A DNA stretch of 64,000 nucleotides, taken from contig CAVTWJ010000022.1 of assembly GCA_963738405.1 (NCBI GenBank), forward strand, positions 153,717-217,716. Direction: 5' to 3'. The DNA comes from a candidate division FCPU426 bacterium. Its GTDB lineage: Bacteria > Oederibacteriota > Muellerivitia > Muellerivitales > Muellerivitaceae. This document shows positions 42,443-64,000 of this stretch, one piece after another. The notes under the pieces were generated by a model, which ran no database searches, had not been told where the DNA came from, and worked only from the letters and a program-made list of their open reading frames with translations. Numbering within the stretch: position 1 is the first letter of the stretch; every line of letters begins with the position of its first letter. The position numbers were made by a program, and so were the translations under genes.

Positions 42443-42517
42443 TGGAGCGGGAGACCGGATTCGAACCGGCGACGTCCACCTTGGAAGGGTGGCATTCTAC
42501 CACTGAATTACTCCCGC
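42443..42517 (-). tRNA. tRNA-Gly (TCC)
   Basis: GCGGGAG...CTTCCAA...GGTTCGAATCC...CTCCCGCTCCA. Confidence 0.95.
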
Positions 42518-44940: not shown

Positions 44941-45951
44941 TTACCATCGAAAACCGCCGCCTTTGTCGTTTCCCAAAGACCCTTCCCCCTCATCCAACGA
45001 CTGGGAGTCTAACTTCTCAGCAGGCCCCTCAATCGGCGTTTCAAGAGCCGAGTCAGGGCCTGGACGAAAAAAGTCCCTTTCGGGGGGGGCATAAATTTCT
45101 GGTGGAGTGCTGACGATCATGGGGTTGGGCGGCGTCGGGACATAGGCGGGTGACGACAGGTAACCCTGATTCGAGGGGATCGGGACCTGATGCGAATTAT
45201 TTGTGGTTCTCTGACTCCAATTGCGCTGGCGGGCCACTTCAAAAAGGAGAAGGGCCGCCGCGACCGAGGCATTGAGGGAGGACATCTTTCCCGCCATGGG
45301 AATCTTCACCAATTCATCGCAATTTTCAGACACCAGCCGCCTTAAGCCCCTTCCCTCGTTGCCGATGACAATCGCCACCGGGCTTTTGTAATCGTACTCA
45401 TAAAAAGGCTTGGTGGCGTCGCCGTCGGTGCCCACGACCCAAACATTGGCTTCTTTTAGCTCGCGAATGGTTTCATTTAAATTGGTTACCTTGACGGTGG
45501 GAATATGCTCGGCCGCTCCGGCAGAGGCTTTCAACACGGTGGAATTGACCTCCACCGCCCGATTCTTGGGAATTACCGCCCCGTGGGCCCCCGCCGCGTC
45601 GGCGCTTCGAAGGATGGCACCCAGGTTATGGGGATCCTCTATTTCATCCAATAATAGAATGAAGGGGTTTTCTTTTTTCTTTCGTGCGATATCCAAAACA
45701 TCCTGCAGGGAAGCATAGTGGAAATCTTCTACCATAGCCAAAACGCCCTGGTGTTTGTCGGTTCCGGCCAGCGTATCCAGCCGGTGGCGGGTTTCAATGG
45801 TGATGGGGATACCCTTAGCCTTGGCATGAGCCTCAATCTGGTTGAGAACCCCATCCCGGGATCCCTGCATCAGGATCACCCGGTTGACCCCCCGGCTTCC
45901 GGACCGGAGCGCCTCCAAAACCGGGTTGCGGCCGTAGATTTTTTCGCTCAT
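44941..45951 (-). CDS. rlmB: 23S rRNA Gm2251 methyltransferase with C-terminal extension
   Basis: IYGRNPVLEAL, HQGV, EDPHNLGAILRSA, GNEGRG, SLNASVA. Confidence 0.92.
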   Translation of the reverse strand: MSEKIYGRNPVLEALRSGSRGVNRVILMQGSRDGVLNQIEAHAKAKGIPITIETRHRLDTLAGTDKHQGVLAMVEDFHYASLQDVLDIARKKKENPFILLLDEIEDPHNLGAILRSADAAGAHGAVIPKNRAVEVNSTVLKASAGAAEHIPTVKVTNLNETIRELKEANVWVVGTDGDATKPFYEYDYKSPVAIVIGNEGRGLRRLVSENCDELVKIPMAGKMSSLNASVAAALLLFEVARQRNWSQRTTNNSHQVPIPSNQGYLSSPAYVPTPPNPMIVSTPPEIYAPPERDFFRPGPDSALETPIEGPAEKLDSQSLDEGEGSLGNDKGGGFRW

Positions 45952-45979: not shown

Positions 45980-47410
45980 TTATTTTTTGGTCAATATCCT
46001 GAACTTGCCGCCCTGAACATCCTCGATGGTAAATCCCATTTGAAAAACCTTGTCGCGGATCTCGTCCGCTTCCTTGTAGCGTTTTTCTTGTTTCATTTTA
46101 ACTCTCGTTTGAGCCAGTTCCTCCACCTCAGGGGGTATGACGAGGGTTTGGGTGGAAACGATCCCCAGCAAACCGCCCAATTGGTTCAATTTCGCGGAGC
46201 TTTCACCAATAAGACTTTTCGCTCCCGCAGTCATGTGGGAGGATTGGCTCAAGACCCGACGGGTTTCCCTGGCCAAATCGAAGAGAACCGCCATGGCACG
46301 GGGCGTGTTGAAATCGTCGTCCATTGCTTCTTTGAACTTTTCCTCAACCTCATCCACCGATAACCGCAGACCCAATAGGTCCTGTGGATCTCCCCCGTCG
46401 GCAATCGCAAGGGCTTCCTGAACCCTCTGAAAAGTTTGATTAAACTCATCCAATCCCCTTCCGCAGGCTTCCAGGGTTTCCCGATCATAATTAAGCCCGC
46501 TTCGGTAATGGGCGCTGAGGAAAAAGTAACGCAAGACCTCCGGTTTAAACTCAGAAAGAGCGTCCTTGGCTTTCCAGATATTCCCCAGGGATTTGCTCAT
46601 CTTTTGGCCCGAGATTTCAATAAAACCGTTATGGAGCCAATATTTCACATAGGGTTTTTCGGTGGCGGCTTCGCATTGTGCGATCTCGTTTTCGTGATGG
46701 GGGAAGATCAGGTCCACCCCTCCGCCGTGGATATCGATGGAATCACCTAAGTGTTTTCGCACCATCGCCGAACATTCGATATGCCATCCGGGCCTTCCCT
46801 TGCCCCAAGGCGAGTCCCATTGGGGTTCGCCGGGTTTGCTGGCCTTCCAAAGCACGAAATCGGTGGGGTGTTTCTTGCTTTCGTTCTTCTCAACCCGGGC
46901 GCCTTCCATGATTTCTTCCAGCTTCTTGCCCGAAAGGCTGCCATAAGGCTTGAAAGTCGTGGAGTCGTAAAGAACATCCTGTCCTAAATCGGTGGAAGGA
47001 ACCGGATAAGCGTGTTCCTTTTCCACAAGCCCTGAAATTAAGCCGATCATTTCCTGAATATGGTCCGTGGCCTTCGGATGAACATCCGCCTTTTGAACAT
47101 CCAATTTTTCCATCACCTCAAAAAAAGCCTTAGTATTCGTTTCCGCCACTTCCTTGGCATCCCGCTTTTCATCGATGGAAATCTTTATGATCTTGTCGTC
47201 AATATCCGTAATATTCACCACATAGGTCACCTGATAGCCCAAATAAACCAAGTATTTTCGTATGACGTCAAAATTAACCTGGGAGCGGGCGTTGCCGATG
47301 TGGATATCGCCGTACACCGTGGGGCCGCAAACGTACATTTTCACCTTGAGAGGATTTAACGGAAGGAAATCTTCTTTTTTCCCGGAAAGGGTGTTGGTGA
47401 CTTTAAGCAA
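45980..47410 (-). CDS. cysS: Cysteine--tRNA ligase
   Basis: YVCGPTVY..HIGN, GRPGWHIECS, FPHHENE, KMSKS. Start set at TTG after GAGG. Confidence 0.96.
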   Translation of the reverse strand: MLKVTNTLSGKKEDFLPLNPLKVKMYVCGPTVYGDIHIGNARSQVNFDVIRKYLVYLGYQVTYVVNITDIDDKIIKISIDEKRDAKEVAETNTKAFFEVMEKLDVQKADVHPKATDHIQEMIGLISGLVEKEHAYPVPSTDLGQDVLYDSTTFKPYGSLSGKKLEEIMEGARVEKNESKKHPTDFVLWKASKPGEPQWDSPWGKGRPGWHIECSAMVRKHLGDSIDIHGGGVDLIFPHHENEIAQCEAATEKPYVKYWLHNGFIEISGQKMSKSLGNIWKAKDALSEFKPEVLRYFFLSAHYRSGLNYDRETLEACGRGLDEFNQTFQRVQEALAIADGGDPQDLLGLRLSVDEVEEKFKEAMDDDFNTPRAMAVLFDLARETRRVLSQSSHMTAGAKSLIGESSAKLNQLGGLLGIVSTQTLVIPPEVEELAQTRVKMKQEKRYKEADEIRDKVFQMGFTIEDVQGGKFRILTKK

Positions 47411-47429
47411 AAAAAACCTCAAAAATAAA

Positions 47430-47465
47430 TTGAACCACAGAGTACACAGAGTTACGCAGAGTAAA
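47430..47465 (+). repeat. Left arm of the inverted repeat flanking the GxxExxY gene (tandem ~10-mers)
   Basis: TTGAACCACAGAG-TACACAGAG-TTACGCAGAG-TAAA. Confidence 0.92.
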
Positions 47466-47864
47466 TCAAAGAATAATTCTTTTTATTCCTTTTTTCATCG
47501 AACCAACATTGAAATTAAGCAAGAGTCCAACATGACACCCGGTGAGTTTCAAATAGGTCATGATTTGGGCCTCGTGTATGGGAAGGATTAACTCAACAGC
47601 TTTCAGTTCAACAATTAGGCATTCTTCAACCAAAAGATCAATCCTGAACCCGATTTCCAATTGAGCGTTTTTATAAATAACAGGAATTGGTACCTGTTTT
47701 TCTACTTTCAAGCCTCTTTCAGAGAGCTCATGAGCAAGGGCATATTCATAGACATTTTCTAATAAACCAGGCCCTAACGCGCTATGAACATCTAAGGCTG
47801 CATCTACTACTTCACCGGACACTTTGTTTAATTCATCCAAGGAAACAATCTGAATTTTCGTCAT
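47466..47864 (-). CDS. GxxExxY protein (PD-(D/E)XK nuclease-like)
   Basis: HSALGPGLLENVYE (GxxExxY), RIDLLVE..IVELKA, QIMTYLK, GLLLNF. Confidence 0.92.
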   Translation of the reverse strand: MTKIQIVSLDELNKVSGEVVDAALDVHSALGPGLLENVYEYALAHELSERGLKVEKQVPIPVIYKNAQLEIGFRIDLLVEECLIVELKAVELILPIHEAQIMTYLKLTGCHVGLLLNFNVGSMKKGIKRIIL

Positions 47865-47866
47865 AT

Positions 47867-47903
47867 TTTACTCTGTGTAACTCTGTGTAACTCTGTGGTT
47901 CAA
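47867..47903 (-). repeat. Right arm of the inverted repeat flanking the GxxExxY gene
   Basis: TTTA-CTCTGTGTAA-CTCTGTGTAA-CTCTGTGGTTCAA; its reverse complement matches the left arm with 1 gap and 1 mismatch. Confidence 0.92.
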
Positions 47904-48535
47904 GATTTTGTTCTCTTCTTTGCCCGCGGAACGTATGAACCTGAATAACGGGCCAATTCCTTTTCAAGGTGTTCCAATCGCTTCACAAGGGGATCGGGCA
48001 GTTTGTTATGGTCCAACTCGCCCGCCAAGTCCTTTCGACCCCTGAGACGGACAATGCGCCCGGGCACGCCTACCACAGTGGAATAGGGGGGAACATCGGT
48101 CAAGACCACCGAGTTCGCGCCGACCTTGGAATATTCTCCAATAATGATGTTACCGAGGACTTTCGCGCCCGTAGCCACCACCACATGGTCCTTCAAGGTA
48201 GGGTGCCGCTTGCCCTTTTCCTTACCCGTTCCGCCCAAGGTCACCTGTTGGAACAGAGTCACATTGTCCCCTATTTCACAAGTTTCGCCGATGACTGTTC
48301 CCATTCCATGATCGATAAAAAAATACTTTCCGATTTGGGCGCCGGGATGGATCTCAATGCCCGTCAGAGAACGGGAAATCTGGGATATAAGCCTAGGGAA
48401 AAAGGGTATTTTCATCTTCCACAGAGCGTGGGCAATGCGGTGGTAAAACATGGCGTAAACGCAGGGGTAGAGGAGCAATTCCCACCACCGGGCCGCCGGG
48501 TCCCTATCCAAGATAGATTTAAAATACTGAAACAT
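47900..48535 (-). CDS. cysE: Serine O-acetyltransferase
   Basis: [36 protein letters not shown]. Confidence 0.95.
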
Positions 48536-48555: not shown

Positions 48556-50016
48556 TTACTTCACTTCCCCGATTGTCCAAACAGCAATCCGCTCGACCAC
48601 CTTGGATTGTCCTAATAGGGGACCAATCTTTACCAATTCAGGTCCATCCTCCCGGCCCGTCAGGGCTAATCTTAAAGGATGATACAGGGCTTTACCCTTG
48701 ATATTGCCTTGTTTCCCAACTTCCTTCACGATTTTCAGGAAATTCTCACCGTTAAAATCACCGGAAAATTCTTTAAAAACCTTCTCGAAAACTTCCATGA
48801 CAGGTTTGAGTGTTTTCATTTCCTCGGTGTGGCCGGGATCAAAGTGAAGCTCGTCCGAAAAGAAAAAATAGGTTTCTTTCACGATGTCGGAGAAACAACC
48901 CAGGCTGGTCCGAACCGTGCCCACCACAGCCTTCAGCCAGTCGAATTTCTCGCGGGCCTGTTCCCGGGTGATGTATTGGGCATCGATTAAATAAGGAAGA
49001 AGGGCCCGGGTTAAATCGTCCAAACTATATTTCTGTTCGGTAAGATATTGCATTCCCATCCAATGAAGTTTCACGGGGTCAAAAATCGCCCCGCTTTTCC
49101 CCACGTGGGTCAAATCAAACTCGGCCGCCATTTGCTCCAAAGAGAGGATCTCCCCACTCTTGGGCGCCCAACCCAGCAGAGCCAGATAGTTCAGAAAAGC
49201 TTCAGGCAGGTAGCCCTTCGCTTTGTAGCTTTCCACGCTGGTCTCGCCGTGGCGCTTGGAAAGCTTTTGGCCGTCGGCCCCCTTGATAATGGAAAGATGC
49301 GCGAACTTGGGGGTCATGAACCCCAAGGCTTGGTAAAGAAGAACCTGCTTGGGAGTATTGGACAGGTGGTCCTCGCCTCGAATCACATGGGTGACCTCCA
49401 TGAGGGCGTCATCCACTACTACCGTAAAGTTATAGGTGGGGCTTTTATCCGAGCGGGTCAATACGAAATCACCGATCTGGTCGTCGGGGAAACGCACCTC
49501 GCCCCGCACCTCGTCTTGGACCAAAATTTCGCCCGGCGGCACAATGAACCTCAAAACCGATGGCATTCCCTTCGCGTCCAGTTGTTTGATTTCTTCCGAC
49601 GAGAGTTTTTTGCACTTCCCGCCGTATTTGGGCATATGGCCCCGGCCTAGCTGGCGCTTGCGTTCAAGTTCTAGCTCTTCCTCGGTGCAATAGCAGGGGT
49701 AAACCTTGTTCGAATTCTTTAACTTTTGCAGGTAACCATCGTAAAGCGCGGTTCGTTCGGATTGTTTATAGGGAGCGTGGGGGCCGCCCACCCTGGGACC
49801 CTCGTCCCATTTCAGGCCCAGCCAGCCCATAATATCCAACAGGTTTTCACAGGCCAGATCGGTGGAACGGACCTTGTCCGTATCCTCAACCCGAAGGATG
49901 AAAACGCCGCCCGTATGCCGGGCATAGAGCCAATTGTAAAGGGCCGTGCGCACATTCCCCAAGTGCAGGTCCCCGGTGGGGCTGGGCGCGAAACGGACTC
50001 TGACCTTATCAGACAT
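48556..50016 (-). CDS. gltX: Glutamate--tRNA ligase
   Basis: RFAPSPTG.LHLG, RVEDTD, HVIRGEDH, KLSKR. Confidence 0.96.
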   Translation of the reverse strand: MSDKVRVRFAPSPTGDLHLGNVRTALYNWLYARHTGGVFILRVEDTDKVRSTDLACENLLDIMGWLGLKWDEGPRVGGPHAPYKQSERTALYDGYLQKLKNSNKVYPCYCTEEELELERKRQLGRGHMPKYGGKCKKLSSEEIKQLDAKGMPSVLRFIVPPGEILVQDEVRGEVRFPDDQIGDFVLTRSDKSPTYNFTVVVDDALMEVTHVIRGEDHLSNTPKQVLLYQALGFMTPKFAHLSIIKGADGQKLSKRHGETSVESYKAKGYLPEAFLNYLALLGWAPKSGEILSLEQMAAEFDLTHVGKSGAIFDPVKLHWMGMQYLTEQKYSLDDLTRALLPYLIDAQYITREQAREKFDWLKAVVGTVRTSLGCFSDIVKETYFFFSDELHFDPGHTEEMKTLKPVMEVFEKVFKEFSGDFNGENFLKIVKEVGKQGNIKGKALYHPLRLALTGREDGPELVKIGPLLGQSKVVERIAVWTIGEVK

Positions 50017-58104: not shown

Positions 58105-58214
58105 ATTTCACCACCAAGACACCAAGACACCAAGTTAAGTCTTGAAAAAAATATAGACGTTTTAAGAGTTTTCAAATCCTGGCCTTGTCGTTCTTGGTGT
58201 CTTGGTGGTGAAAT
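58105..58214. repeat. 110-bp hairpin with tandem-8-mer inverted arms between alr and mlaE
   Basis: ATTTCACCACCAAGACACCAAGACACCAAG ... CTTGTCGTTCTTGGTGTCTTGGTGGTGAAAT; the outer 23 bp are perfectly complementary. Confidence 0.9.
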
Positions 58215-60312: not shown

Positions 60313-60383
60313 GCGGGCGTAGCTCAATGGTAGAGCCCCAGCCTTCCAAGCTGGTCATGCGGGTTCGATTCCCGTCGCCCGCT
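60313..60383 (+). tRNA. tRNA-Gly (TCC), CCA not encoded
   Basis: GCGGGCGTAGCTCAATGGTAGAGC...CTTCCAA...GGTTCGATTCCC.TCGCCCGCT. Confidence 0.93.
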
Positions 60384-60402
60384 CTCATCGTTTCAGCCCA
60401 GG

Positions 60403-60693
60403 TCAGGGTTTATTATTCGCTAGCTCTGTCGGGTTACTCTCGACGTCTGCTTGGGGCGGCGTGCCCGTTGCGTGCCCGATGGCTTCGGGTCCGTGCCCGT
60501 TCGCTTGGTGCTCTTTCTTCGCCTCGGCGAAGAGCCTGCCCATGCCTGCCGCTATCTTCTGGTCGCGCTCGCGGGTGGCGTGCAGGTATATGAGTGCGGC
60601 GCGCGGGCTTGAGTGGCCCATCCGCTCCATCAGCTCCTTGAGGCTGGCGCCCTGCGCGGCCGCCATCGTGTTCCCCGTGTGCCGCAGGTCGTG
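60403..60693 (-). pseudogene. C-terminal fragment of a tyrosine integrase (actinomycete integrative element type)
   Basis: In-frame HDLRHTGNTMAAAQGASLKELMERMGHSSPRAALIYLHA; the sequence upstream of HDLRH is replaced by a repeat cluster; convergent with tRNA-Gly. Confidence 0.85.
60460..60501 (+). repeat. Three CGTGCCCG(T/A)T direct repeats, candidate integrase arm-type sites
   Basis: Copies at 60460, 60471 and 60492. Confidence 0.55.
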
Positions 60694-60694
60694 A

Positions 60695-60801
60695 TTATGC
60701 CGACGTCGGCATAACCATGATTAAGCCGACCTTCGCGTTATGCCGACCTGCGGGCGGATGTCCTGCTCAGCGGGGTGGGGCATCGGATGATGTCGGCATA
60801 A
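60695..60801. repeat. Five TTA(T/A)GCCGAC motifs including a perfect 20-bp palindrome
   Basis: TTATGCCGACGTCGGCATAA 60695-60714; TTAAGCCGAC 60721; TTATGCCGAC 60738; GTCGGCATAA 60792. Confidence 0.9.
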
Positions 60802-60854
60802 TGAAGTGACTTCGAGCCATCATGTCCTTCTCGTCAGGGAGGGGAGGAGTCAAG

Positions 60855-62075
60855 ATGGCCGGAGCAGCGAGCAGGATCAGCAGGGTGCGTGTGACGGGGC
60901 CGTTGGCCCCGTTCGCGGAGGAGTATCGCCGCGAGTTGAGGGAGCGCGGCTATACGGAGCGGTCGGCGGTCAACGAGCTGCGGCAGGTGGCCCGGTTCAG
61001 CGGCTGGCTCCAGGCGAGCCGGCTGAGCGTCTCGGAGCTGGGCGCCGGCCGGGTCGAGGAGTTCCTCGGCTGGCAGCGTGCCGTCGGGCGGCACCGGTCC
61101 CAGTGGTCGCGGCCGGGGCTGGTGTGCCTGCTCGACGTGCTGCGTGAGCTGTGGGTGCTGGCGGCTGGGCAGCCAGCTCAGGCGGACTCGCCGGCGGAGG
61201 TGCTGCTGGCTGGGTTCGGGCGCTACCTGGCAGCTGAGCGAGGCCTGGCGGCGGGCACCGTCCGGGGCTATGTGAGCCATGCCCGCCGGTTCCTGGACGG
61301 GCTGCCCGCCGCTGCGGGCCTGGCCGGCCTGAGCGCCAAAGACGTGACCGAGGCGGTGCTGCGGAGGTCAGCGGCGGTGTCGGTCAGCGCCACGCAGTTC
61401 TTCGTGGCCGGGCTGCGGTCGTTTCTCCGCTTCTGCTTCATCGAGGGCCAGGTGCCCGTCGATCTGTCGCAGGCAGCGCTGCCGGTGACCGGCCGGCGGC
61501 GCTCGCCGCTGCCCCGGGGGATCGCGAAGGCCGACGCCCGGGCGTTGCTGGGTGGCTGTGACCGGCGCTCGGCGCCGGGGCGGCGCGACTACGCGATGCT
61601 CGTCACGCTGCTCCGGCTGGGATTGCGCGCCGGGGAGGTGGCGCGGCTGAGGCTGGATGATATCGACTGGCGGGCGGGGGAACTGGCCGTGCGGGGCAAG
61701 GGCGCCCGCGAGGACCGGCTGCCCCTGCCCGCAGAGGTGGGCCAGGCGATCGCCTGCTACCTGCGGCGGGGACGGCCGGCCAGCGGCCGGCGGGAGGTGT
61801 TCTTGCAGGCCCGGGCCCCGTTCGGCGCCATAGCGCCGGGCACCGTGTCGTCCACGGTGCGCCGGGCGTGCCGGCGGGCAGGGGTGGCGGAGGTGGGGGC
61901 ACACCGCCTGCGCCACACGGTGGCCTGCGAAATGGTGGCCGCCGGGGTCCCGCTGACCGACATCGCCCAGGTGCTGCGCCACCACAGCCTGCAGACCACG
62001 GCACTTTACGGGCGAGTGGACCTGGACCGGCTGCGGGCCCTGGCCGCGCCGTGGCCGGGAAGCGTGCAGCGATGA
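60855..62075 (+). CDS. Tyrosine recombinase, RIT first gene (A-type)
   Basis: RRDYAML..LGLRAGEV, RGKG, AHRLRH, LRH...TTALY; GGAGGAG RBS. Confidence 0.88.
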   Translation: MAGAASRISRVRVTGPLAPFAEEYRRELRERGYTERSAVNELRQVARFSGWLQASRLSVSELGAGRVEEFLGWQRAVGRHRSQWSRPGLVCLLDVLRELWVLAAGQPAQADSPAEVLLAGFGRYLAAERGLAAGTVRGYVSHARRFLDGLPAAAGLAGLSAKDVTEAVLRRSAAVSVSATQFFVAGLRSFLRFCFIEGQVPVDLSQAALPVTGRRRSPLPRGIAKADARALLGGCDRRSAPGRRDYAMLVTLLRLGLRAGEVARLRLDDIDWRAGELAVRGKGAREDRLPLPAEVGQAIACYLRRGRPASGRREVFLQARAPFGAIAPGTVSSTVRRACRRAGVAEVGAHRLRHTVACEMVAAGVPLTDIAQVLRHHSLQTTALYGRVDLDRLRALAAPWPGSVQR

Positions 62076-62803
62076 GCACGCTGAACAGCCACGCGGAGGA
62101 CTACCTGCGGCTGCGCCGGGCGCTCGGGTTCAAGCTGGAGCGCGCCGGGCAGCTGCTGCCCCAGCTGACGGCCTACCTGGAGGCCGCCGGCGCCGGCACG
62201 GTAACCAGCGACCTGGCGATCGCCTGGGCCCGGCTGCCCGATGCCACGCCTAACCACTGGGCGCAGCGCCTGGCCATCGCGCGCGGCTTCGCCCGCTACC
62301 TGCAGACGATCGACCCGGCGGCCGAAGTGCCGCCGCCCGGGGTGTTCCCCGCCCGGCGGCACCGGCCCGCTCCCTACCTGTTCAGCCAGCGCGATATCTG
62401 CCGGATCCTCCAGGCGGCCCGCGCGCTGCGCCCGCCGCTGCGGGCCGCCACCTGCGAGGCGATCTTCGGGCTGATCGCGGCGTCCGGCATGCGCATCGGC
62501 GAGGCCACCGGGCTGGACCGCGGCGACGTCGACCTCGGCACCGGCGTCATCACCATCCGTGAGGCCAAGTTCGGCCGCTCCCGGCTGGTGCCACTGCACC
62601 CGACCGTCACCGCGGCGCTGGGCCGCTACGCCGCCGAGCGCGACCGGCTCTGTCCCCGGCCCCGCTCGGCAGCGTTCTTCTTGTCCGGAGCCGGCACCCG
62701 CCTCGATCGCAGCGGCGCCGGAGCCACGTTCCGCACGATCACCGCGGGCCTCGGCATCCGCACCGCCACCGTCCGGCCCCGGGTCCATGACCTGAGACAT
62801 TAG
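62072..62803 (+). pseudogene. Tyrosine recombinase, RIT second gene (B-type), truncated right after HDLRH
   Basis: YLRLRRALGFKL, SGMRIGEA, KFGRSRLVPLH, PRVHDLRH then TAG; lacks the LGH/catalytic-Tyr box. Confidence 0.85.
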
Positions 62804-62896
62804 GCGGACGGCTGGGTTATGTGCCCTGCCGTGGTGTTTCCGCTGCTAGGGGCGGCGGAGCTCGTCTTGCAGTCCGCATAATGCTGCTCGCCAGCG

Positions 62897-63940
62897 TCAT
62901 CGCCCCAGCGAGTCGAGCCAGCCGACCAGGGACGAGTCGAGGGTCCAGTCCGGCAAGGCGTCTGGGGTGAGTGGTTCGTAGGCATTTTCAATCGCTCTGC
63001 GTTTGGTCTCGGCGTCTGCACGGGCGTAGATCTCGGTGGTGGACACATCGGCATGGCCGAGCAGGTCGCGGATGTAGATCAGGTTGACGCCGGCCTGGAC
63101 CAGGTGCATGGCCCGGCTCCGCCGGAGCGTATGAGGCGTGACCTGCAGGCAGGGAGCCCAGCCGGGGTCGCGCGCCCGGACGGCCCGCACGTGGCGGGCC
63201 AGCAGCTTGGCCACCCCGGACCGGGTCAATCTGGAGTGGTTTGGCCCGGCGAACAGCGGGTCGGCGTCGGCGCCGACGCCGGGATGCCGGTCGCGGTGGT
63301 CGAGGTAGTCGTCGACGAGCCGGGCGGTCGGCTCCATCACGGGCACGTACCGGATCTTGGAACCCTTCCCGCGGATCACCACAGTCATCGGGCTGCCGCG
63401 GCGGATATCAGCGACGTCGAGGTCGCAAAGCTCCTGGACGCGGGCGGCGGTGTCGTAGGCCAGGGCGAGCAGGACGGTGTCCCTGACAGCGCGTGCGCTG
63501 GCCGTGCCAGGTTCGGCGAGCAGCGTTTTGACCTCGTCGCCGGTCAGGTGGTCTAGCTGCGGGGCCGGGGTCTTTTTCTGCCGGATCGCGAGGACCTGGG
63601 TGACCTGGTCGAGATGGCCGGGCTGCTCGATGGCGGTGTAACGGCAAAACGACTTGATCACCGCCAGGCGCTGGTTGCGGGTGGCGGCCGAGCAGTTCCG
63701 CTCGGCCTCCAGCCAGTCCAGGAACCGCAGGGCCCGGGGCCGGTCGATGTCGGCCAGGCGCAGCTTCTCCGGCGGTATGCGCTCTACGTCCCTGAACCAG
63801 GTGAGCAGCAGTTTCATCGCGTCCCGGTAGGACGAAATGGTTTTTGGCGAGGCTGCGCGCTCCCCGGCCAGGTGGTCGGTGAAGAATTTCGACAGCCAGC
63901 GCCCGGCAAGATCCGGCGGCGGCGCGGGCCGCGGGTTCAC
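62897..63940 (-). CDS. Tyrosine recombinase, RIT third gene (C-type)
   Basis: SPKTISSYRDA, TRNQRLA, YDTAARVQE, GKGSK.R.VP, TPHTLRR, IRDLLGH..VSTTEIYA. Confidence 0.88.
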   Translation of the reverse strand: MNPRPAPPPDLAGRWLSKFFTDHLAGERAASPKTISSYRDAMKLLLTWFRDVERIPPEKLRLADIDRPRALRFLDWLEAERNCSAATRNQRLAVIKSFCRYTAIEQPGHLDQVTQVLAIRQKKTPAPQLDHLTGDEVKTLLAEPGTASARAVRDTVLLALAYDTAARVQELCDLDVADIRRGSPMTVVIRGKGSKIRYVPVMEPTARLVDDYLDHRDRHPGVGADADPLFAGPNHSRLTRSGVAKLLARHVRAVRARDPGWAPCLQVTPHTLRRSRAMHLVQAGVNLIYIRDLLGHADVSTTEIYARADAETKRRAIENAYEPLTPDALPDWTLDSSLVGWLDSLGR

Positions 63941-64000
63941 CGCTCGTCCCCGGGCAGCGGGGGGATGACGTAGCCGAACCGGACCTGGGCAGGTAGCCGG
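63937..64000 (-). CDS. C-terminal tail of the upstream gene (probable B-type recombinase), partial
   Basis: ...AQVRFGYVIPPLPGDER* with a GTGA stop/start overlap into 62897..63940. Confidence 0.5.
   Translation of the reverse strand, partial: RLPAQVRFGYVIPPLPGDER

Follow-up and report, generated by a model that had tools for sequence, protein, structure and literature searches.

The window analysed here, a stretch of 64,000 nucleotides from a candidate division FCPU426 bacterium (contig CAVTWJ010000022.1 of assembly GCA_963738405.1), carries between the genes cysE and cysS an element of 474 bp (47430-47903), in which a small gene of the GxxExxY family is enclosed by two inverted arms built of tandem repeats. 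The genes of this region are read from the minus strand in the order gltX (48556-50016), cysE (47900-48535), an open reading frame (ORF) of 132 amino acids coding for a putative nuclease (47466-47864), cysS (45980-47422) and an rlmB-type methylase gene (44941-45951). The upstream host gene, cysE, codes for serine O-acetyltransferase (TIGR01172, 225.6 bits, above the cut-off) and the downstream host gene, cysS, for cysteine-tRNA ligase (TIGR00435, 526 bits).

The 5′ arm (47867-47903, 37 nt, minus strand) consists of an outer TTGAAC, three (C/A)CACAGAG units at 10-nt spacing and TAAA, with the heptad array at positions 47871, 47881 and 47891. The 3′ arm (47430-47465, 36 nt, minus strand; heptad array at 47436, 47445 and 47455) is its reverse complement except for one spacer that is 1 nt shorter and one A/C mismatch. 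In a gapped alignment compared with 30 shuffles of the flanks, this arm pair with its single gap and single mismatch scored 62 (z = 13.7), and it was recovered independently by a repeat search of the window. The repeat unit is ACACAGAG(TT), present three times per arm with a 10-nt period. The 9-mer ACACAGAG occurs nine times in the window when up to one mismatch is allowed, against 4.3 expected occurrences, and six of the nine are located within the two arms.

The ATG of the nuclease gene follows 2 nt after the end of the 5′ arm, and the 3′ arm begins directly after its TGA. Towards the host genes, the cysE stop codon TGA (47900-47902) falls within the outer TTGAACC of the 5′ arm, and the outer end of the 3′ arm lies about 19 nt ahead of the likely cysS start. 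In silico removal of 47430-47899 left TGA, 19 nt containing GAGG, and TTG CTT AAA. The cysS start itself is ambiguous (47408-47422): the ORF caller picked the TTG at 47422, and an alternative TTG is found at about 47410 with GAGG 8 nt upstream. Judging from the usual N-terminus of cysteinyl-tRNA synthetases and from the GAGG, we presume that the TTG at about 47410 is used.

The G+C content of the nuclease ORF is 0.378 compared with 0.49-0.555 in the neighbouring genes, and at third codon positions it is 0.35 compared with 0.59-0.64. Folding of the RNA from 47415 to 47920 paired the arms at -154.5 kcal/mol (z = -6.66), which was equalled by none of 100 shuffled sequences. Neither a sigma-70-like promoter nor a sense-strand terminator was detected in 47300-48100. 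An intrinsic terminator was rejected as an explanation of the stem, because of this missing terminator signal and a loop of 400 nt. No target-site duplication was visible around the element, tblastn with the protein revealed no second copy of the nuclease in the window, no rRNA match was obtained in 47000-48400, and the hairpin had no Rfam match in E-value mode. The ORF contained no transposase domain, PF13366 being its sole Pfam match. These results bear out the original prediction, made from the letters alone, which had described an ORF filling the gap between the arms (2 nt to the ATG, 0 nt to the stop), arms of three ~10-mers each that differ by one gap and one mismatch, an overlap with the cysE stop codon, a compact junction after deletion of 47430-47899, an AT-rich ORF, and the lack of a transposase or an obvious target-site duplication.

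The GxxExxY nuclease

The 132-residue protein is a full-length family member that matched TIGR04256 ('GxxExxY protein') with E = 2.6e-44 and 150.3 bits (cut-off 35) and PF13366 (PDDEXK_3) with E = 3.6e-43 and 147.1 bits (cut-off 22), in agreement with its earlier assignment to the PD-(D/E)XK-like proteins. Among 39 close relatives sharing 60-87% identity, residues G33, E36, Y39, D76 and K88 do not vary, and E86 is nearly invariant. The catalytic residues D76, E86 and K88 have counterparts in 84 of the 85 loci described below. In the AlphaFold2 model (predicted local distance difference test score 88.3) helices (H) and strands (E) follow each other in the order H H E E E H E, corresponding to a restriction-endonuclease-like alpha/beta fold. 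Top matches in a Foldseek search were Cas4, lambda-type exonucleases, archaeal Hjc and splicing endonucleases; all of them were weak, the best E being 6.9e-3 and none reaching 1e-3. The predicted fold and the catalytic D...ExK thus suggest a likeness to Cas4, the Hjc resolvase and lambda-type exonucleases, and their dimeric use would be shared as well, as tandem fusions imply for GxxExxY. In contrast to these enzymes, the protein has no Fe-S cysteines, the window offers no CRISPR context, and a search of PDB chains by sequence profile gave no match. A part in an anti-phage defence system found no support among known models: the nuclease matched no family of the PADLOC defence models and had no match in PHROGs.

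The family is large, with 21,737 representative clusters (about 21,700 at 50% identity) at E ≤1e-3 and 7,595 at E ≤1e-10. The only literature statement that we found on PF13366/GxxExxY, in the accessible text of PMC3424549, gives its function as 'Unknown... multiple transfers'. Several proteins of ~266-295 amino acids (P0121-P0131) are tandem fusions of two GxxExxY domains, and in the three that were inspected the second domain had lost the catalytic D/E/K, so that they represent a built-in pseudo-dimer. These two-copy forms imply that the working unit is a dimer. An additional domain was found in two of 18 longer proteins, P0154 and P0201, which appear as RNase H-PDDEXK_3 and CobU-PDDEXK_3 'fusions'. 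Most simply, both are explained by read-through from an upstream host gene across the arm into an inserted cassette.

Recurrence and anatomy of the heptad arms

A genome scan confirmed at least 590 relatives among 597 candidates, of which the best 80 (48-61% identity) were kept. This sample excludes the genome of the window and its 70-87% identical relatives. It covers Chloroflexota, Bacteroidota, Planctomycetota, Verrucomicrobiota, Pseudomonadota, Acidobacteriota, Gemmatimonadota, Ignavibacteriota, Thermodesulfobacteriota, Lentisphaerota and archaea, and together with four plasmid loci and the window it amounts to 85 loci. In an unbiased search, flanking inverted repeats scoring at least 30 were detected at 41 of 77 analysable GxxExxY genes compared with 6 of 987 other ORFs from the same loci. 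A forward heptad array upstream of the gene and a reverse array downstream were present in 49 of the 85 loci, and seven of the 80 had no array near either gene end. Arrays of at least three units were found 209 times in 658,923 nt, whereas 20 shuffles gave 0.05 on average. The same design is seen in cultured isolates with finished replicons: the cassette lies between radA and the gene for an FAD protein in Bacteroides finegoldii, between ade and a mannose-1-phosphate guanylyltransferase gene in Bernardetia, and between fabD and fabG in Sphingomonas, where the annotated ORF continues through the 3′ arm.

The gene-in-hairpin design therefore recurs across phyla, and the search for inverted tandem repeats at other GxxExxY genes, which had been proposed along with the original prediction, turned out positive. 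A chance inverted repeat or an assembly artefact, in favour of which one might say just that the window is a single sequence, is refuted by the repeat score at cysE-cysS and by the recurrence of the design, which 49 of 85 independent loci share, finished replicons of isolates among them. The absence of such arms from other GxxExxY genes, which would have spoken against the cassette, does not hold for the relatives with 48-61% identity, 41 of 77 being armed, and holds for four more distant ones. Among these more distant genes (L085:2346-3000, L086:2316-3020 and L087:2346-3015), those on Fusobacteria and Prevotella plasmids (36-40% identity) have direct repeats of ~20-65 nt at their flanks in place of inverted heptad arms; two of the four distant homologues have such direct repeats. 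A Treponema copy has just an 11-nt inverted repeat (ACACGGATTCG).

The unit shared by the arms is the heptad CRCNRAG, most commonly in the forms CACAGAG, CGCAGAG, CACAAAG, CGCGGAG, CACGAAG and CACCAAG. Arrays consist of three (167 arrays) or four units (45 arrays), with none longer detected, and the spacing is mainly 8-10 nt. In 165 of 212 arrays an AC stands directly before the first unit. At these terminal positions A is conserved to 89% and C to 85%, and the two ends of an element are complementary in 92-97%. One base outside the AC, complementarity falls to 41-65% and conservation drops as well, while positions -4 to -6 are T-rich. The inter-unit spacers of the two arms match in length in 88-93%, and their bases are complementary in only 41-53%. 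Variable positions inside the units, by comparison, are complementary in 75-88%. Since spacers are mostly unpaired and unit positions complementary, what is conserved is a set of sequence-defined blocks on both arms and not a perfect palindrome. The conservation of a defined heptad next to unpaired spacers speaks for a protein that recognises the arms. Similarity between units is higher within an arm than between loci (57% versus 36%; 37% versus 8% for the rarer types).

Over 16 hairpin-rich loci (131,131 nt) the only Rfam match was a tRNA, and a literature search, which left out most subscription journals and the comments of database families, found no published description of heptad-hairpin arms around GxxExxY genes. 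Together, the data suggest that the cysE-cysS cassette is one copy of a widespread, apparently undescribed class of insertion element.

Host operons and gene-less hairpins

The longest ORF found within 450 nt was taken as the neighbouring host gene and entered the count if Pfam supported it; orientations were counted by hand. Of 58 upstream genes 49 ran in the direction of the nuclease gene, as did 39 of 57 downstream genes. At 42 loci with support on both sides, 27 arrangements were +/+, 7 +/-, 3 -/+ and 5 -/-, so that among the 32 cassettes whose neighbours point in the same direction 27 follow the operon and 5 are antisense to it. Insertion sites included fabD-fabG, trpE-trpD, nuoM-nuoN, cusB-cusA, uppS-cdsA, ureB-ureC, hemE-hemN, ribF-ileS, cbbL-cbbQ, lolD-FtsX permease, NrfC-NrfD and, in antisense orientation, secY-adk. 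Many of these gene pairs are normally adjacent. The distance from the upstream stop codon to the arm had a median of 8 nt (n = 27), 15 of the 27 values lying between -8 and +15, and at several loci the upstream stop codon is located inside the arm end. The next start codon followed 5-34 nt after the arm in 13 of 22 cases. Cassettes of this type thus occupy the gaps between stop codon and next start codon in operons that are conserved apart from the insertion, and most of them point in the direction of the upstream gene. This orientation bias, the lack of a promoter and the burial of the nuclease start codon in the base of the stem are arguments that the transcript matters too.

Two occupied hemE-hemN sites differ: one has a plain 3′ arm and the other a complete small hairpin in that place, together with a degenerate 5′ arm (L055:4150-4215 and L063:5381-5405). 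In both, the first arm heptad encodes the last codons of hemE and its stop.

Heptad hairpins also occur without a gene. One of them is present in the window itself at 58105-58214 (no strand assigned), between the stop codon of an alanine racemase gene (58224) and the start of an MlaE-like permease gene (58098). It is composed of ACC and three CACCAAG units, a loop of 58-64 nt, and two CTTGGTG units followed by GGT; its fold as single-stranded DNA had a z of -7.5, with none of 200 shuffles as good. Its unit type (CACCAAG) is unlike that of the cysE-cysS cassette. Over all loci there were 105 adjacent forward-reverse array pairs, 56 with loops of at most 150 nt and 42 with loops of 301-700 nt. 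Spacings of 151-3000 nt were found for 49 pairs, of which 36 were flagged as enclosing a GxxExxY gene and six more (L008, L021, L040, L047, L056 and L073) enclose a tblastn match by coordinates. The remaining pairs of this class are short or flank sufB/D, nadA, a hemerythrin-domain gene or a HEAT-repeat gene.

Near-identical multiple copies or tandem clusters of short hairpins were seen at L006, L022, L041, L044 and L060. At L041 (4599-5739) tandem clusters of near-identical ~100-nt hairpins lie on both sides of the gene, and at L006 (3106-6906) many dispersed hairpin copies have one common loop sequence. In L003, L028, L068 and L084 the gene is placed between two complete hairpins and not inside one; at L068 (4763-5492) these are directly repeated, and the locus includes a run of N.

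These observations bear on an alternative according to which the heptad hairpins are an independent family similar to repetitive extragenic palindromes (REPs) and GxxExxY genes are separate selfish genes that target the hairpin loops in the manner of homing endonucleases, the arms being their target and no part of the element. Consistent with it, gene-less pairs outnumber gene-bearing ones (56 versus 42) and their loops contain no trace of the gene, the ORF in the window fills its loop to within 0-2 nt, some genes lie between complete hairpins as just described, and the hairpins near a gene do not follow that gene in unit class. It fits less well that arms abut GxxExxY genes so much more often than other genes (41 of 77 versus 6 of 987), that only one other small cargo, a PF05635 gene, was found in such arms and with different units, and that the unit type clusters weakly on the protein tree. 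We regard homing into pre-existing loops as distinctly unlikely.

Two further features of the window concern tRNA genes. Directly after tRNA-Gly(tcc) at 60313-60384 the G+C content rises from ~0.5 to 0.66-0.76 (60313-64000), and this stretch contains three tyrosine-recombinase (Phage_integrase) ORFs at 60822-62075 and 61868-62803 on the plus strand and at 62897-63940 on the minus strand. It resembles a recombinase-in-trio island integrated at a tRNA gene, or may be an assembly chimera. A second tRNA-Gly(tcc) is encoded at 42443-42517.

Known hairpin elements and the proposed mechanism

Miniature inverted-repeat transposable elements (MITEs) and insertion sequences (ISs) with terminal inverted repeats, for example the Correia/NEMIS-type elements, resemble the cassette in their terminal repeats, in having short gene-less intergenic derivatives, in co-transcription with their neighbours and in possible processing by RNase III. 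The GxxExxY cassette differs from these elements in that it has neither a DDE nor any other known transposase and lacks a target-site duplication, in that its arms are internally iterated heptads, and in that the gene-less loops are not deletion remnants of the gene. An IS or transposon with terminal inverted repeats was rejected, as there was no transposase domain and no duplication in 71 elements.

Closer in layout are the REP elements with their REP-associated tyrosine transposases (RAYTs) and the doublets known as REPINs, as far as they are described in the accessible parts of PMC3116915, PMC5581495 and PMC3733652. Both systems combine a single nuclease-type gene with flanking inverted short repeats that are also dispersed as gene-less intergenic hairpins, and both have few, vertically persistent and selected gene copies and lack target-site duplications. 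In contrast, RAYTs are HUH/Y1 (IS200-like) enzymes and GxxExxY proteins belong to the PD-(D/E)XK type (PF13366 as sole match), REPs carry GTAG or CGTC tags where the heptad arms have an AC(C) end and three to four iterated heptads, and GxxExxY cassettes are found inside operons across many phyla. A REP-RAYT system proper was rejected on these grounds, with no HUH/Y1 enzyme and an arm end of T-rich sequence, AC and first unit in place of GTAG/CGTC. Its layout, inverted repeats that flank a gene and recur as dispersed gene-less hairpins, is present.

The intervening sequence (IVS) of 23S rRNA offers a second parallel. According to the accessible text of PMC4990558, the Coxiella IVS has 428 nt, a terminal stem of 28 bp and three tandem heptamers GACAGAT just ahead of its ORF; it is excised by RNase III in vitro and its origin is unknown, with transposition as one hypothesis. 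ORF-bearing IVSs (S23p/PF05635), as far as that source goes, and the cysE-cysS element are alike in their size of ~430-470 nt, in a small ORF that fills the loop of a terminal-repeat stem, in three heptamers within the 5′ arm before the ORF start (GACAGAT in Coxiella, CACAGAG here), in their position in a highly transcribed housekeeping region without a promoter of their own, and in being regarded as selfish and of unknown origin. They differ in cargo, a PD-(D/E)XK nuclease (PF13366 only) here and a PF05635 four-helix bundle there, and in site, the intercistronic spacer of the cysE-cysS mRNA as opposed to helix 25 or 45 of 23S rRNA. Moreover, the ORF is under purifying selection here and decaying and probably untranslated there (PMC4990558, same limits), and RNase III cutting was demonstrated there and is assumed here. 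A 23S IVS proper was rejected because of its site (cysE-cysS, no rRNA match) and ORF family (PF13366, not PF05635). The cassette does have the ground plan of such an IVS, in which an inverted-repeat stem with tandem heptamers in its arm surrounds a small ORF. At locus L019 a gene for a PF05635 '23S rRNA intervening sequence protein' (1650-2009, E = 2.8e-11) lies outside any rRNA and has, within 1500-2330, inverted repeats on both sides that are built of another tandem unit (CGAAAT-type); a long tandem array follows downstream. Thus, a second, unrelated cargo family shares the bracket design.

Alternatively, the element could be a purely RNA-level IVS, its arms mattering in the transcript alone. 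RNase III would cut the stem, or the stem would insulate the insert, and cysE and cysS would thereby remain expressed; the nuclease would be a passenger or act elsewhere and have no part in the biology of the arms. The original prediction had named such an mRNA intervening sequence as its alternative, and the analogy with the ORF-bearing 23S IVS lends it some support: the layout is that of an element excised by RNase III, including tandem heptamers in the stem (PMC4990558, in the text available). The similarly bracketed PF05635 gene, where unrelated cargo has the same design, the near-perfect 36-bp stem in the window, the co-direction of cassette and operon in 27 of 32 cases and the missing promoter point the same way. 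A stem alone, however, needs no heptad that is conserved between phyla, and the spacers are mostly unpaired. Furthermore, the mismatches between arms show no significant sense-strand G-U excess, five of 32 cassettes are antisense to their operon, and strong purifying selection acts on the nuclease, whose active site is intact, unlike the decaying IVS ORF (as far as PMC4990558 describes it). A role confined to RNA is unlikely in our view.

On balance we consider it somewhat probable that the element is a mobile-type cassette in which a dimeric nuclease reads the heptads, expression depends on read-through and translation is throttled by the stem, all parts taken together. The cassette would have entered the cysE-cysS junction as DNA and would be, or once have been, mobile. 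Its dimeric nuclease might recognise the heptads as iterated binding sites and, once the arms have folded back or formed a cruciform, cut them at their AC/GT ends or close by. Such cutting could maintain or spread cassettes and gene-less hairpins, much as RAYTs serve REPs and REPINs. Lacking a promoter of its own, the nuclease gene would be transcribed by read-through from cysE, and in the transcript the arms may pair into a stem of ~36 bp that buries the nuclease start and keeps expression low. This stem is of the type of duplex that RNase III cuts, as it may do here in the manner of the ORF-bearing 23S IVS. Mobility, binding and cutting of heptads by the nuclease, and processing of the stem are what we infer; the evidence does not decide between action at the RNA and at the DNA level.

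A number of results weigh against this reading. The 80 loci were picked by similarity to the protein of the window and therefore represent one subfamily, and the four more distant homologues (31-40% identity) carry no heptad arms. No target-site duplication was detected in 71 elements at end offsets of 2-8 nt and k = 2-5, apart from one marginal excess, and no known transposase is present in the element. Neither an empty site nor an excision product or a polymorphism was seen, in a sample that leaves out the closest relatives. Arm mismatches on the sense strand (67 G-U, 49 A-C and 93 others) give no clear RNA signature. Heptad type and protein co-vary weakly, with 9 changes compared with a shuffled mean of 11.6 (1 of 500 shuffles was as low) on a poorly resolved tree in which 2 of 41 inner branches were well supported. 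The repeat-protein co-variation that had been suggested as a check on the original prediction was thus seen in weak form only. Gene remnants with E <1 were found in none of 26 gene-less loops, controls yielding strong matches only where the sampled segments contained the real gene; the gene-less hairpins are therefore not simple deletion derivatives. Nearby gene-less hairpins shared the unit class of the local gene in 12 of 17 cases compared with 10.2 expected, which is not significant. Among plasmid records the family occurred in 8 of 72,556, all of them large and non-mobilizable, and among phage records in none of 50,697. A second gene copy within 5 kb was found at just one of the 80 loci and was 40% identical. 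Finally, the same site is occupied in different genera, namely radA in Bacteroides and Mediterranea, hemE-hemN in two Ignavibacteria-type genomes and a further site in two Verrucomicrobia, and the ratio of non-synonymous to synonymous substitution rates (dN/dS) of same-site pairs was 0.08-0.18, indicating strong purifying selection.

Stop codons interrupted the gene in three of 85 loci, and no identical multi-copy gene-bearing cassettes were seen. Same-site persistence under purifying selection is what one would expect of a domesticated resident no less than of a mobile element. Same-site copies with such low dN/dS, together with the lack of identical gene copies and of target-site duplications, speak for a resident of the RAYT kind that has been retained for a long time under selection, more than for an active selfish cassette of the simple kind. 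Strong purifying selection, retention at the same site across genera and the burial of the start site in the stem would suit an ordinary host nuclease of repair, RNA processing or defence that was never mobile, with the heptads as autoregulatory operators or as a device of translational control. Against this stand the dozens of unrelated intercistronic sites within conserved operons, the G+C content of the gene, which is below that of its locus in 49 of 49 armed loci (mean difference 8.9 points), the multi-copy gene-less hairpins and the missing match to any PADLOC model. In addition, a well-supported clade of the protein tree mixes Pirellulaceae, Chloroflexota, Geobacteraceae, Verrucomicrobiota and Acidobacteriota, in agreement with the 'multiple transfers' mentioned in the accessible text of PMC3424549. 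An ordinary host gene is very improbable on this evidence.

Overall, the interpretation of the original prediction is partly supported. Its minimal selfish cassette stands insofar as gene and arms form one unit (41 of 77 versus 6 of 987; 49 of 85 loci), with conserved units and termini and insertions into operons; it is less well supported as a simple active element, given the dN/dS of 0.08-0.18, same-site persistence and the lack of a duplication. In relation to known systems, the cassette is a variant of the IVS-type and REP-RAYT-type hairpin elements.

With considerably more doubt, GxxExxY proteins may be the mobility or maintenance enzymes of pan-bacterial (and archaeal) heptad-hairpin elements. 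In this tentative scheme, a lone nuclease would read CRCNRAG and move or copy its own cassette and gene-less hairpins into the gaps between stop codon and ribosome binding site without target duplication, and the ORF-bearing 23S IVS would belong to the same class, having landed in rRNA. In a bolder variant still, the nuclease would cut the stem of helices and internal loops in the transcript, making the cassette a protein-assisted, intron-like mRNA insert.

For PF13366/GxxExxY, a large bacterial family without an assigned function, our analysis provides a concrete, testable substrate in the form of a sequence-defined hairpin. The repeat family itself is defined as AC followed by three to four CRCNRAG heptads in inverted arrangement, has no Rfam match and is currently missed by annotators. 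It accounts for odd small ORFs in textbook operons such as fabD-fabG, nuoM-nuoN and ribF-ileS and for the apparent fusions CobU-PDDEXK_3 and RNase H-PDDEXK_3, and it offers a starting point for tracing where rRNA intervening sequences came from. If it is true that the nuclease mobilises its cassette, GxxExxY proteins would represent a new enzymatic class of prokaryotic mobile element.

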